DNA of 5,791 nucleotides, from positions 1-5,791 of IMG/VR virus record IMGVR_UViG_2529292729_000022; one strand, given 5' to 3'. The notes under the pieces are model-generated. The model searched no databases and had not been told where the DNA came from. It saw only the letters and a list, made by a program, of their open reading frames with translations. This DNA comes from a virus (lineage: Duplodnaviria; Heunggongvirae; Uroviricota; Caudoviricetes). This document shows positions 23-5,600 of the stretch, piece after piece (position 1 is the first letter of the stretch; each line of letters begins with the position of its first letter). A program made the translations under genes and the position numbers.

Positions 23-348
23 AAACATTTCGCTGGAAAGTGAAGCCGGATATGGAGGTGAACTCGCAGCCATCGGTGCGTGAAGTGCGTTTTGGTGACG
101 GGTATTCGCAGCGTATGGCGGCGGGGCTGAATGCTGACCTGAAAACATACCGTGTGACGCTTTCCGTGACCCGGGAGGAGGCCCGGCATCTGGAAGCGTT
201 CCTGGCAGAGCACGGTGGCTGGAAGGCGTTTCTGTGGACACCGCCTTATGCATACCGACAGATAAAGGTGACCTGTGCCGGGTGGTCTGCGCGGGTCGGG
301 ATGTTGCGCGTTGAGTTCAGCGCGGAGTTTAAGCAGGTGGTGAACTGA
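19..348 (+). CDS. M: Tail tip assembly protein M (lambda gpM-like), 109 aa
   Basis: ATG at 19 preceded by GGGAG (8-12). Same 109-aa length as lambda gpM, and sits directly upstream of L with stop TGA 346-348 sharing one base with the L start. Order M-L-K-I-J matches lambda. Confidence 0.88.
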   Translation: MKTFRWKVKPDMEVNSQPSVREVRFGDGYSQRMAAGLNADLKTYRVTLSVTREEARHLEAFLAEHGGWKAFLWTPPYAYRQIKVTCAGWSARVGMLRVEFSAEFKQVVN

Positions 349-1046
349 TGCAGGATATTCACGAAGAAAGTCTGAACGAGTCGGTTAAATCAGAGCAGTC
401 ACCGCGGGTGGTACTCTGGGAAATCGACCTGACGGCACAGGGCGGTGAGCGGTATTTTTTCTGTAATGAGCTGAATGAAAAAGGGGAGGCGGTCACCTGG
501 CAGGGGCGGAAGTACCAGGCATACCCGATTGACGGCAGTGGCTTTGAGATGAACGGGAAGGGCAGCAGTGCCCGCCCGTCGCTGACGGTGTCGAATCTGT
601 TTGGTCTGGTCACCGGGATGGCGGAGGACCTGCAGAGCCTGGTGGGGGCCACGGTGGTCCGCCGCCGGGTGTATGCGCGTTTTCTGGATGCGGTGAACTT
701 TGTGGCAGGCAATCCGGAGGCCGACCCGGAGCAGGAGCTGACTGACCGGTGGGTGGTGGAGCAGATGTCATCGCTGACGGCCATGACGGCCTCGTTTGTG
801 CTGGCCACACCGACCGAGACGGACGGGGCGCTGTTTCCCGGTCGCATCATGCTGGCGAACACCTGTATGTGGGATTACCGGGGAGATGAATGCGGGTATA
901 ACGGTCCTGCGGTGGCGGATGAGTTCGACAACCCCACCACGGATATCCGTAAGGACAGATGCAGCAAGTGCATGCGCGGGTGTGAGATGCGCGGCATGGC
1001 GGTCAATTTTGGCGGTTTCCTTTCCATCAATAAACTTTCGCAGTAA
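348..1046 (+). CDS. L: Tail tip protein L (lambda gpL-like), 232 aa, C-terminal cysteine cluster
   Basis: ATG at 348 with AGGTGG (335-340) 7 nt upstream. Same 232-aa length as lambda gpL and recognisable blocks such as VVLWEIDLT, GGERYFFCNE, VTWQGR, PGRIMLANTC, YRGDECGY, NFGGFLSINKLSQ. Cys at residues 173, 182, 205, 208, 212. Confidence 0.92.
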   Translation: MQDIHEESLNESVKSEQSPRVVLWEIDLTAQGGERYFFCNELNEKGEAVTWQGRKYQAYPIDGSGFEMNGKGSSARPSLTVSNLFGLVTGMAEDLQSLVGATVVRRRVYARFLDAVNFVAGNPEADPEQELTDRWVVEQMSSLTAMTASFVLATPTETDGALFPGRIMLANTCMWDYRGDECGYNGPAVADEFDNPTTDIRKDRCSKCMRGCEMRGMAVNFGGFLSINKLSQ

Positions 1047-1056
1047 ATCCTGTTTT

Positions 1057-1800
1057 ATGACACAGACTGAATCAGCGATTCTGGCGCATGCCCGGCGGTG
1101 TGCGCCTGCGGAGTCGTGCGGCTTCGTGATAAGCACGCCGGAGGGGGAACGGTATATCCCTTGTGTGAATATCTCTGCAGAGCCGGAGGCGTATTTTCGT
1201 ATCGCACCGGAAGACTGGCTGCGGGCAGAGATGCAGGGGGAGATTGTGGCACTGGTCCACAGTCATCCCGGTGGACTGCCCTGGCTGAGCGAGGCTGACC
1301 GGCGGCTGCAGATAAAAAGCGCACTGCCCTGGTGGCTGGTCTGCCGGGGTGACATTCATAAATTCCGCTGTGTGCCACATCTGACAGGACGGCGCTTTGA
1401 GCACGGGGTGACGGACTGTTACACGCTGTTCCGGGATGCCTACCATCTGGCGGGAATTGATATGCCGGATTTTGAGCGTGAGGATGACTGGTGGCGCAAC
1501 GGTCAGAACCTTTACCTGGACAATATGGCGGTCACAGGCTTTTACCGGGTGCCCCTGTCCTCTGCACAGGCGGGCGATATCCTGCTGTGCTGCTTTGGCG
1601 CATCGGTGGCCAATCATGCCGCCATTTACTGCGGCAACGGTGAACTGCTTCACCATCTGCCTGAACAACTGAGTAAACGGGAGAGGTATTCTGAAAAATG
1701 GCAACGACGAACGCATTCTGTCTGGCGTCACCGCCACTGGTCCGCATCTGCCTTCACGGGGATTTACAACGATTTGGCCGCCGCCTCAGCCTGTATGTGA
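1057..1800 (+). CDS. K: Tail assembly protein K (lambda gpK-like), 247 aa; N-terminal MPN/JAMM domain plus C-terminal NlpC/P60 domain
   Basis: First ATG after the L stop, in frame with track ORF 796..1800 (whose upstream TTG-started extension overlaps L and is rejected). JAMM motif H68-S-H70-x7-S78-x2-D81 (HSHPGGLPWLSEAD, nt 1258-1299) with upstream Glu in STPEGERY. NlpC/P60-type Cys121 in GVTDCYTLF and His187/His199 in NHAAIYCGNGELLHH. No clear Shine-Dalgarno; start is 11 nt after the L stop, so coupling or reinitiation is plausible. Confidence 0.88.
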   Translation: MTQTESAILAHARRCAPAESCGFVISTPEGERYIPCVNISAEPEAYFRIAPEDWLRAEMQGEIVALVHSHPGGLPWLSEADRRLQIKSALPWWLVCRGDIHKFRCVPHLTGRRFEHGVTDCYTLFRDAYHLAGIDMPDFEREDDWWRNGQNLYLDNMAVTGFYRVPLSSAQAGDILLCCFGASVANHAAIYCGNGELLHHLPEQLSKRERYSEKWQRRTHSVWRHRHWSASAFTGIYNDLAAASACM

Positions 1801-2378
1801 ACACGGCAGCGGAGGCCATCCGTGCCCTGTCGCTGCAGGTGCCGGGATTCCGCCGTCAGATGAACGAAGGCTGGTACCAGATACGTATTGCTGGTGAGGA
1901 CACGGCACCGGAGGCGGTGTATGCCCGCCTTCACGAACAACTGGGTGAGGGGGCGGTCATCCATATTGTGCCGCGACTGGCCGGTGCAGGGAAAGGCGGA
2001 CTGCAGATTGTGCTGGGGGCGGCAGCCATCGTGGGCTCTTTCTTCACGGCCGGAGCATCGATGGCAGCCTGGGGTGCAGCGCTGAGTGCCGGCGGTTTTT
2101 CTGCCACCACGATGCTGTTTTCACTGGGTGCCAGCATGATACTGGGTGGTGTGGCACAGATGCTGGCCCCGAAGCCAAAAACACCGGAATACAGGGCAAC
2201 GGATAACGGTAAACAGAACACGTACTTTTCGTCGCTGGATAACATGATTGCCCAGGGGAACCCGATGCCGGTGCCTTACGGTGAAATGCTGGTTGGCTCA
2301 CGGCGAATCTCCCAGGACATCAGCACCCGTGATGAAGGTGGTGGCGGGAAGGTGGTGGTTATCGGGCGGCAGGGGTAA
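1698..2378 (+). CDS. I: Tail assembly protein I (lambda gpI-like), 226 aa
   Basis: ATG at 1698, GGGAGAGG at 1679-1686. Strong resemblance to remembered lambda gpI (ARICLYGDLQRFGRR, GAEAIRAL, GWYQVRIAG, GAVIHIVPR, QIVLGAAAI, GSFFTAG, LFSLGASM, LGGVAQMLAPK, TDNGKQNTYFSSLDNM, YGEM.VGSR). Overlaps the 3' end of K by 103 nt in a different frame, as in lambda. Confidence 0.88.
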   Translation: MATTNAFCLASPPLVRICLHGDLQRFGRRLSLYVNTAAEAIRALSLQVPGFRRQMNEGWYQIRIAGEDTAPEAVYARLHEQLGEGAVIHIVPRLAGAGKGGLQIVLGAAAIVGSFFTAGASMAAWGAALSAGGFSATTMLFSLGASMILGGVAQMLAPKPKTPEYRATDNGKQNTYFSSLDNMIAQGNPMPVPYGEMLVGSRRISQDISTRDEGGGGKVVVIGRQG

Positions 2379-2623: not shown

Positions 2624-5600
2624 GTGGGTAAAGGTGGCGGCAGGGCGCACACGCCGGTAGAGGCAAAGGACAATCTTAAGTCCACGCAGATGATGAGCGT
2701 GATTGACGCCATTGGTGAAGGGCCGATTGAAGGTCCGGTGAAGGGGCTGCAGAGTATTCTGGTGAACAAAACCCCGCTGACGGACACGGACGGTAATCCT
2801 GTGATACATGGTGTGACAGCGGTCTGGCGCGCCGGGGAGCAGGAGCAGACACCGCCGGAAGGTTTTGAGTCATCCGGCTCTGAAACCGCACTGGGCGTGG
2901 AAGTGACGAAGGCAAAGCCGGTGACGCGCACCATTACGTCCGCGAACATTGACCGCCTGCGGGTCACCTTCGGGGTGCAGTCACTGGTGCAGACCACCTC
3001 ACAGGGTGACCGTAACCCGGCATCCGTCCGCCTGCTGATTCAGCTGCAGCGTAACGGTAACTGGGTGACGGAAAAGGATGTCACCATTAACGGCAAGACC
3101 ACCTCACAGTACCTGGCGTCGGTGATTCTGGAGAATCTGCCTGAGCGGCCCTTTAACATCCGGATGGTCCGGGAGACGGCGGACAGCACCACGGACCAGC
3201 TGCAGAACAGAACGCTGTGGTCGTCATACACCGAAATCATCGATGTGAAACAGTGCTACCCGAACACGGCCATTGTGGGGCTGCAGGTGGATGCGGAGCA
3301 GTTCGGCGGTCAGCAGATGACGGTGAACTACCATATCCGCGGTCGCATCATCCAGGTGCCGTCAAACTACGACCCGGAAAAACGCACGTACAGCGGCATC
3401 TGGGACGGCAGTCTGAAACCGGCATACAGCAACAACCCGGCCTGGTGCCTGTGGGACATGCTGACTCACCCGCGCTACGGCATGGGAAAACGTCTGGTGG
3501 CGGCGGATGTTGACAAGTGGGCGCTGTATGCCATCGGGCAGTACTGCGACCAGACGGTCCCGGATGGTTTCGGGGGCACAGAGCCGCGGATGACCTTTAA
3601 TGCGTACCTGTCACAACAGCGTAAGGCGTGGGACGTTCTCAGTGATTTCTGCTCGGCGATGCGCTGTATGCCGGTATGGAACGGCCAGACGCTGACGTTC
3701 GTTCAGGACCGCCCGTCGGATGTGGTGTGGCCGTACACCAACTGCGATGTGGTGGTGGATGATAACGGCGTGGGGTTTCGCTACAGCTTCAGCGCCCTGA
3801 AGGACCGCCACACGGCGGTGGAGGTGAATTACACCGACCCGCAGAACGGCTGGCAGACCTCCACGGAACTGGTGGAAGACCCGGAAGCCATACTGCGCTA
3901 CGGGCGCAACCTGCTGAAGATGGATGCGTTCGGTTGCACCAGTCGCGGTCAGGCCCACCGTGCCGGGCTGTGGGTGATAAAGACCGGACTGCTGGAAACG
4001 CAGACGGTGGATTTCACGCTCGGGTCACAGGGGCTGCGTCACACACCCGGTGACATTATTGAAATCTGTGATAACGACTATGCCGGGACCCTGACCGGCG
4101 GACGTATCCTGTCCATCGATGCCGCCAGCCGCACCCTGACACTGGACCGTGAGGTGACCCTGCCGGAGACAGGTGCCGCCACGGTGAACCTGATTAACGG
4201 CAGCGGTAAGCCGGTGAGCGTGGCCATCACTGCACACCCCGCGCCGGACCGGATACAGGTCAGTACCCTGCCGGATGGTGTGGAGACATACGGTGTGTGG
4301 GGGCTTTCCCTGCCGTCACTGCGTCGTCGCCTGTTTCGCTGTGTCTGCATCCGGGAAAACACGGACGGCACTTTTGCCATCACGGCGGTGCAGCATGTGC
4401 CGGAAAAAGAAGCCATCGTGGATAACGGGGCCAGCTTTGAGCCGCAGTCAGGCACCCTGAACAGCGTCATCCCTCCGGCAGTGCAGCATCTCACGGTGGA
4501 GGTGAGCGCCGCTGACGGGCAGTATCTGGCGCAGGTGAAATGGGACACGCCGCGGGTGGTGAAGGGGGTGCGCTTCAGTCTGCGCCTGACCAGCGGAAGC
4601 GGAGAAGACAGCCGTCTGGTGACCACCGCCATCACCGCGGATACAGAGCACCGTTTCAGCGGTCTGCCGCCGGGGGAATACACCCTGACGGTCAGGGCGA
4701 TTAACAGTTATGGCCAGCAGGGGGAACCGGCCACCACCACGTTCAGGATTAATGCACCTGCGGTACCCGCCACGATTGAGCTGACACCGGGCTATTTTCA
4801 GATAACAGCGGTCCCGCGTCTTGCGGTGTATGACCCGACGGTACAGTTTGAGTTCTGGTTTTCGGAGACAAAAATCGCAGATACATCTCAGGTGGAAACC
4901 TCTGCCCGTTATCTGGGGACCGGCAGTCAGTGGAGTGTATCCGGCCCGCACATTAAGCCCGGGAAGGATTTCTGGTTTTACGTGCGCAGCGTCAACCTGG
5001 TGGGGAAATCTGCTTTTGTGGAAGCCAGTGGCCGGGCCAGCAATGATGCAGAAGGGTATCTGGGGCTGTTTCGGGAAAAAATAGGAAAACTGCATCTGGC
5101 TCAGGGGCTGTGGGAGCTGATAGACAACAGCCAGCTTGCGGATGAGATGGCGGAGATGAAGACCTCCATCACCGAAACCCGCAATGAAATCACACAGACG
5201 GTCAGTAAAACGCTGGAGGACCAGAGCGCCACCATACAGCAGATACAGCGCGTGCAGAAGGACACAAATGATGACCTTGCTGCACTTTACATGCTGAAGG
5301 TACAGAAAACAAAAAATGGCATACCCTATGTTGCCGGTATTGGAGCGGGGATTGAGGATACTGATGGCCAGCCCCTGAGCAACATACTGCTGCTGGCTGA
5401 CCGTATTGCGATGATTAACCCGGAGGACGGCAACAGCACGCCGTTATTTGTGGCGCAGGGGAATCAGTTGTTCATGAACGATGTGTTCCTGAAGCGGCTG
5501 TTTGCGGCGAGTATCACGTCATCCGGCAACCCCCCGACGTTTTCCCTGACGCCGGAAGGGAAGCTGACAGCCAGGAACGCGGATATCAGCGGAGCAATTA

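Follow-up and report, generated by a model that had tools for sequence, protein, structure and literature searches.

Two questions are raised by gene K at this locus: from which codon is the protein read, and what function does it perform when it is read from there? The window, by which we mean the whole 5,791-nt (5.8-kb) stretch of viral DNA that was analysed, is filled by a tail-tip module of the lambda type, in which the genes are arranged as M-L-K-I-J. Gene M occupies positions 19-348 and is followed on the plus strand by gene L (348..1046), which is present in the ORF list, encodes the minor tail protein L of 232 aa and is recognised by the Pfam profile Phage_tail_L with E=4.6e-92. Gene K (1057..1800) and gene I (1698..2378 in its long form) lie on the same strand and overlap; after a spacer of 245 nt (2379-2623) gene J starts with GTG 2624 and continues past the end of the window. 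The position of K between L and I is confirmed by the Pfam assignments of the neighbouring genes and by the gene order of lambda. Stx-converting and BP-4795-like prophages of pathogenic E. coli match the window with 98-99% identity, and the carrier of the K module is a Stx/BP-4795-like lambdoid prophage of E. coli. A search of the window against Rfam gave zero matches at E<=1.

The reading frame of gene K and its start

The frame of K extends from ATG 1057 to the TGA stop at 1798-1800 and specifies a tail tip assembly protein of 247 aa with a JAB and an NlpC/P60 domain, for which the ORF, the Pfam matches, the homologues and RefSeq all provide evidence. The initial annotation of this DNA had argued that this long form is the real K and that a lambda-style protein of 199 aa would have to begin at nt 1201, where the window carries Ile. 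Both details were confirmed: the codon at 1201..1203 on the plus strand is ATC, which encodes Ile49, and nt 1201-1800 correspond to 199 aa. In the alignment with lambda the start of the annotated reference protein, ATG 14276, falls exactly on ATC 1201; an indel is found in this alignment, but it leaves the lambda start on nt 1201.

The 247-aa form is supported as the real K, much as had been proposed, because the MPN domain begins at residue 3, codons 1-48 evolve as coding sequence, the structural model is confident at the N-terminus, and distant homologues align from their own N-termini. In comparison with lambda, nine of codons 1-48 have changed synonymously and three non-synonymously, and of the 14 base differences 10 fall on third positions; judged by these substitutions, the codons are under purifying selection. 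In Escherichia, Salmonella, Citrobacter and Edwardsiella the homologues have lengths of 242-249 aa. Altogether ~1,800 cluster representatives match K at E<=1e-10, and among the best 150 of them those with 35-50% identity are typically 230-260 aa in length and aligned from residues 3-15. The distant set to which the conservation counts below refer consists of 110 full-length representatives with <62% identity. Position 49 is occupied by Ile in 73 members of this set, by Met in 13, by Leu in 11 and by Val in 7, so that lambda, with its Met, is the exceptional case. RefSeq annotates an identical 247-aa K as a C40 family peptidase in the E. coli prophage that is closest (WP_000194707.1). The identity of K, its start at ATG 1057 and its two-domain architecture are held with high confidence.

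The TAA stop of L is located 10 nt upstream of the K start, and in the L-K spacer between them (1047..1056, plus strand) the SD duplex scan detected no Shine-Dalgarno match before ATG 1057 (0 kcal). Because the ATG is not preceded by such a match, we infer that translation of K is coupled to termination of L, so that ATG 1057 is probably reached by ribosomes that terminate at the L stop. In the alignment the distance from the L stop to the K ATG is 5 nt longer in the window than in lambda; this length is not divisible by three, and the frame upstream of the K ATG is therefore not shared coding sequence. Lambda has an in-frame TAA seven codons upstream of the long-form ATG, with zero start codons between the two.

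The further claim that only the 247-aa form is possible in this phage is too strong, as in-frame start codons are present downstream of 1057 (GTG 1126, GTG 1165, ATG 1231 and GTG 1246). Each of them would remove residue E19, and GTG 1246 has a good Shine-Dalgarno match (the SD-like GGGGGA, -9.4 kcal, spacing 4). K versions of 189 aa are present in databases (P0066). The shorter starts are excluded because of domain integrity and conservation, and not because start codons are absent.

Two predicted peptidase domains

The JAB/MPN+ (JAMM) metalloprotease domain covers aa 3-105 (1063..1371, plus strand) and is identified by Pfam Prok-JAB (PF14464; E=4.5e-16, 59.2 bits against a cut-off of 25), where these residues correspond to positions 3-113 of the 114 in the profile, by PDB sequence matches to 2kks and PfJAMM1, and by Foldseek. 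The PDB sequence matches to JAMM proteins begin at K residues 4-12. If K is started at nt 1201 instead, only profile positions 63-113 are left, with 26.6 bits, just above the same cut-off. An AlphaFold model was built on 19 homologues, with the lambda row left out of the alignment. Residues 1-40 are its most confident part (pLDDT 82-93), with a helix at 3-15 and strands at 19-27 and 30-35; overall the model is moderate (pLDDT 74, pTM 0.56), and the mutual placement of the two domains in it is unreliable. With the N-terminal half of the model, Foldseek retrieved PfJAMM1 (TM 0.59 on target), CSN5, Rpn11 and AMSH with E around 1e-4.

The JAMM signature had been described as intact, with E31 as its glutamate. 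The first part of this description stands: a Glu, the HxH pair, the Ser and the Asp are all there, and the spacing HxH-x7-S-xx-D is exact. The zinc-binding part, H68-S-H70 ... S78 ... D81 (1258..1299, plus strand), is invariant in close homologues, and the codons of H68 (1258), H70 (1264), S78 (1288) and D81 (1297) were checked individually, as were those of E31 and I49. In the distant set H68 is kept in 108 of 110, H70 in 106, D81 in 108 and S78 in 100, with Thr in a further eight. The glutamate is a different matter. E31 (GAA, 1147..1149, plus strand) is replaced by Pro, Met or Ala in close homologues and is Glu in only 21/110 distant ones, and this residue was rejected as the JAMM glutamate on the grounds of both conservation and alignment. 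The likely catalytic Glu is E19 in the AESCG motif (1111..1113, plus strand), which is invariant in 20 close homologues, kept in 105/110 distant ones and placed by alignment opposite the Glu in the 'VEVCGF' stretch of P. furiosus JAMM1. The E-x-x-G position in AESCG is the one used by the JAMM enzymes Rpn11, CSN5 and AMSH-LP. Since E19 and E31 are both encoded upstream of codon 49, the argument for the long form survives this correction. The JAB domain of K is a predicted zinc isopeptidase.

The second domain, a papain-like domain of the NlpC/P60 (C40) type, covers aa 111-224 (1387..1728, plus strand). The Pfam profile NLPC_P60 (PF00877) is matched over its full length (positions 1-105 of 105; E=2.8e-13, 50.2 bits against a cut-off of 23), and with the C-terminal half of the model Foldseek retrieved MepS (8xup, 8xud) and 7v6t. 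The three residues that had been named as catalytic are all present, with their codons checked on the plus strand: C121 (TGT, 1417-1419), H187 (1615-1617) and H199 (1651-1653). They are kept in 105-106 of the 110 distant homologues, and in the alignment with 9ubf H199 falls on the His within 'YHAG'.

Past the NlpC/P60 domain, residues 214-247 of K (window 1696-1797) are unusually conserved in close homologues, where W215, R217, H220, S221, W223, H225, W228 and the stretch FTGI-ND are invariant. In homologues with ~40% identity the alignment to K usually stops near residue 226. The conservation of this C-terminal tail is likely due to dual coding, as the N-terminus of I is read from the same nucleotides in the -1 frame.

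The lambda reference sequence and alternative forms of K

One G is missing after position 14266 from the lambda reference NC_001416, whose sequence is the same as that of J02459, and the gap lies 10 nt before ATG 14276. In the alignments the matching base of the window is the G at 1191 on the plus strand, which falls between J02459 14266 and 14267. Across lambda 14260-14275 the sequence reads GGAGGCGTAT with the G and GGAGGCTAT without it, and the site lies in the G+C-rich run GGAGGCG. Owing to the missing G, the reference has an in-frame TGA at 14255, the coding sequence conserved upstream is thrown into another frame, and the record annotates only residues 49-247 (199 aa) as K. The initial annotation had assumed that lambda annotators picked an internal Met of a longer frame; Met49 is indeed the reference start, but there is no open long ORF in that record from which it could have been picked, as the frame is broken by the missing G.

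Other lambda sequences carry the additional base. PV340536, LC730321, DE3, KT232076 and lambda imm434 differ from NC_001416 across K only by this G, and all of them encode an uninterrupted protein of 247 aa. One base more than in the reference is spanned by 55 of the 60 near-identical phage records listed, and an exact match to the reference was found in only four records, namely J02459, its RefSeq copy, OR474059 (marked UNVERIFIED) and OR974322. When the whole genomes of LC730321 and NC_001416 are compared, two single-G indels are seen: LC730321 has one G fewer at 138 and one more after 14266. A vendor's note on the lambda sequence reportedly lists exactly this pair, as 'G deleted at 138, G inserted at 14266'. 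The simplest explanation of the 199-aa K of lambda is a one-base error in the 1982 sequence. A programmed frameshift within lambda K that would bridge the break in the reference is unnecessary, because other lambda sequences carry the extra G. The annotation of K varies even among the records that contain it: depositors give the protein 247 aa in PV340536, only 211 in KT232076, and 199 in both DE3 and lambda imm434. In the literature searched we found no paper in which the base absent at lambda 14266 is explicitly pointed out or the annotation of K is revised.

Several observations concern these records themselves. In imm434 the coordinates of genes H to L are displaced by one base, which fits the difference at position 138, where the reference has an extra G. 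LC730321 has an extra C at 20833 in the stf (orf-401/orf-314) region, which we take to be the intact-stf state of Ur-lambda. OR974322 was deposited as a 'chicken cloacal swab isolate'. Its identity to the reference is 99.99%, and apart from Sam7, the amber change at 45352, it follows the reference; the DNA most likely came from laboratory or control lambda and not from a phage in the environment. It keeps the reference state at 138 and is without the cI857 and ind1 changes (37742 and 37589), which suggests a reference-guided consensus.

Three other accounts of the length of K have to be weighed against the start at ATG 1057 and a sequencing error in lambda. The frame is open upstream back to nt 787, and the 334-aa ORF of the window is, as had been recognised, the K frame extended over L (TTG 796 to 1800); K could accordingly be thought to start within L, either at TTG 796 or, with 293 aa, at ATG 919, and the latter form is annotated in the BP-4795 record as ORF70. 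This is extremely unlikely: the extension overlies the L frame and is not conserved, given the 5-nt deletion in lambda and the in-frame TAA seven codons upstream, homologues begin within a few residues of M1, and the JAB profile begins at residue 3. In the BP-4795 RefSeq record, ORF70 (2915-3796) starts from the ATG equivalent to window 919 and overlaps L by 128 nt, which represents an over-extension. Two products from one gene, in the manner of lambda C/Nu3 or S/S', would mean that a shorter protein with the NlpC/P60 domain only, initiated within the gene at Met49 in lambda and at GTG 1246 or ATG 1231 here, is made beside the 247-aa form. The starts at 1231 and 1246 fall inside helix 51-60 of the MPN fold, and with Ile at position 49 here and in 73/110 distant homologues against Met in 13/110, an internal start at that position is not a feature of the family. 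Lambda does have GGAGG 10-11 nt upstream of Met49, where some depositors annotate a ribosome-binding site, but in the window GGAGG is kept only as part of the P-E-A codons. GTG 1246 is preceded by its SD-like hexamer, and a small group of phages and prophages has a K homologue consisting of NlpC/P60 only (Iyer et al. 2006, PMC1779556); all in all, we consider a second product decidedly unlikely.

The third account takes the missing G of J02459 as a genuine deletion in the strain from which the 1982 sequence was obtained, so that the phage could do without the JAB domain and the NlpC/P60 fragment of 199 aa would suffice. On the one hand, the phage sequenced in 1982 was viable, OR974322 with its Sam7 change is also without the G, and two papers give commercial lambda DNA as NC_001416 with four substitutions only, leaving the indel unmentioned. 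On the other hand, the G is found in every independently assembled lambda derivative examined (DE3, imm434, the Ur-like stf+ strain and an MG1655 lysogen), the site itself is the G+C-rich GGAGGCG, and about 95% or more of distant homologues retain the catalytic residues of JAB; OR974322, moreover, reads as a reference-guided consensus in which the state at 138 is kept and the cI857/ind1 changes are absent. A real deletion is therefore very unlikely, and an error in the 1982 sequence is the preferred explanation.

The long form of K is a correct but already known annotation point, because RefSeq annotates the 247-aa ORF and the architecture has been in print since 2006. It matters nevertheless that NC_001416/J02459 still gives a 199-aa K without the N-terminal half of JAB, and that the proteins derived from this record inherit the truncation. 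A 2020 review analysed the 199-residue gpK and reported only a peptidase domain. For cloning, modelling or mutating K, the 247-aa form is the right version.

Gene I, the possible role of K and related proteins

The 3' end of K and the long form of I overlap by 103 nt (1698..1800, plus strand), with I in the -1 frame, as they do at 14773-14875 in lambda. The start of I is annotated in two ways. The long form begins at ATG 1698 and has 226 aa (223 aa in NC_001416), overlapping K by these 103 nt (also at 1847-1949 in L003); the short form begins at GTG 1797, within the ATGTGA to which the K stop belongs, and has 193 aa here and 190 aa in PV340536, KT232076 and RefSeq prophages. The long form looks right, because Pfam Lambda_tail_I covers aa 16-97 of it (profile positions 4-83 of 83) and ATG 1698 is preceded by the Shine-Dalgarno match GAGAGG; the short form would be expected to lose the first strand of the ubiquitin-like domain. 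A programmed -1 frameshift from K into I was considered and rejected, as the overlap contains a single GGGG run and no X_XXY_YYZ heptamer. Fusion proteins of L with K (PF05100+PF14464+PF00877) and of K with I (PF14464+PF00877+PF06805) are present in the database (P0020, P0024, P0025, P0036, P0043, P0046 and P0116), in clusters of 1-11 sequences, most of them with one or two; these are probably frameshift or assembly artefacts in prophages. Rare fusions of I were also noted by Iyer et al. 2006 (PMC1779556).

Downstream of I, the I-J spacer has 245 nt in the window against 60 nt in lambda and carries no annotation. About 80 records of Stx and lambdoid phages contain it with a conservation of at least 95%. 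A hairpin at 2391-2416, which follows A7, resembles a minus-strand terminator and has an invariant stem and a variable loop. A block of ~85 nt (about 2515-2585) is highly conserved and ends in a strong plus-strand terminator hairpin (2549-2572) with a U-run, resembling the 3' end of an sRNA; the middle of the spacer is variable, with indel lengths that are not divisible by three. The z-score of the RNA fold is -4.6, and searches of the spacer gave zero Rfam matches and zero sigma-70 promoter matches. An ORF of 54 aa (2424-2588) was rejected as a gene, since it is without a Pfam or PHROG match and relatives show indels not divisible by three. The spacer could be an uncharacterised prophage sRNA or moron; we found no link to the published sRNAs AgvB, AsxR or Pas.

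What, then, does the full-length K act on? Protein I is presumed to be its substrate or partner. As translated from the long form and in agreement with Iyer et al. 2006, I opens with an N-terminal ubiquitin-like domain whose end reads ...VPRLAGAGKGG (...GAKSGG in lambda), and a linker that is Gly-rich and hydrophobic leads from there to a C-terminal domain. In 2006 Iyer, Burroughs and Aravind (PMC1779556) described the combination of JAB and NlpC/P60 as 'TAPK' and proposed that the ubiquitin-like domain of I is processed at its C-terminal glycine. It is known that lambda gpK is needed for tail assembly, that it is absent from the virion proteins detected by mass spectrometry, and that it is contained in no resolved structure (PMC10721106, PMC12617516). 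Considering the gene neighbourhood and the proposal of 2006, K would act catalytically in the assembly of the tail-tip initiator and would not be kept in the virion; it is predicted to be a cytoplasmic assembly enzyme with two predicted peptidase domains. That its JAB domain cleaves the ubiquitin-like domain off I is a tentative proposal, to which we give somewhat less than an even chance. The cut would most likely be made after the Gly-Gly that closes this domain (...PRLAGAGKGG), and cleavage would free the C-terminal part of I, the plug that cryo-EM places inside the lambda tail tip. In lambda virions gpI is resolved only at residues 135-223 (PMC10721106). Cleavage by K would explain why nothing but this part is seen in the tail structures, an agreement that falls short of proof. 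The mass spectrometry of the same study identified gpI by a single peptide, which is too little to establish that its N-terminal domain is absent from virions. K may thus possibly be a 'de-ubiquitinase-like' tail-tip maturation enzyme, whose JAB domain would need residues 1-48, including E19, and would cut I at ...AGAGKGG; this reading is plausible and rather less than probable.

An alternative to catalysis is that K serves as a non-catalytic assembly chaperone, in which the peptidase folds are only binding modules. Enzymatic activity of K has never been reported, and K is absent from virions, as a chaperone would be. The JAMM motif and the Cys-His-His triad are, however, kept in about 95% or more of the 110 homologues (<62% identity), which is unexpected for pseudo-enzymes and makes a non-catalytic role unlikely. 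The preferred reading is that K acts as an enzyme. We found no biochemical or other experimental test of the cleavage of I by K in the literature searched. Work on lambda K often used the truncated reference protein of 199 aa, so JAB activity on I, if it is true, may have been overlooked. The idea of cleavage dates from 2006, and the old question of what both protease domains of K cut is directly testable with the full-length protein.

The closest characterised relative is lambda gpK in its corrected form (XSB40720.1 in PV340536), which is 87% identical to the K of the window over 247 aa with zero indels. The first 25 residues are the same in the two proteins, and MTQTESAILAHARRCAPAESCGFV represents residues 1-24. 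The M-L-K-I-J order and the 103-nt overlap of K and I are common to both loci, whereas residue 49 is Met in lambda and Ile in the window, and the L-K spacers differ in length as described above.

At the level of the separate domains, the relatives are cellular enzymes. P. furiosus JAMM1 (5LD9/5LDA), the desampylase of Haloferax and 2KKS have the same fold and the same E...HxH...S..D motif as K. The stand-alone JAMM/MPN+ enzymes cleave ubiquitin-like proteins after a C-terminal Gly-Gly and are ~20% identical to K, in which the domain is instead fused to NlpC/P60 and employed in virion assembly. The NCBIfam desampylase model gives 30 bits against a cut-off of 130, and K is therefore not an equivalog of that enzyme. 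The second domain shares the papain-like fold and the Cys-His-His triad with E. coli MepS/Spr and other C40 peptidoglycan endopeptidases. By direct reading of the sequence, the N-terminus of K is without a signal peptide or lipobox, and considering also that K is not found in the virion, a cell-wall substrate is doubtful. The score of K with TIGR02219 phage_NlpC_fam, 25 bits, lies below the cut-off of 81.9.

As a whole protein, K matches PHROG 30 with E=6.4e-161. This group corresponds to the TAPK family of Iyer, Burroughs and Aravind 2006, whose members in lambdoid and T1-like phages have the same two domains and the same neighbours I and J. The K of the window is a typical member of this family, and nothing substantive sets it apart.
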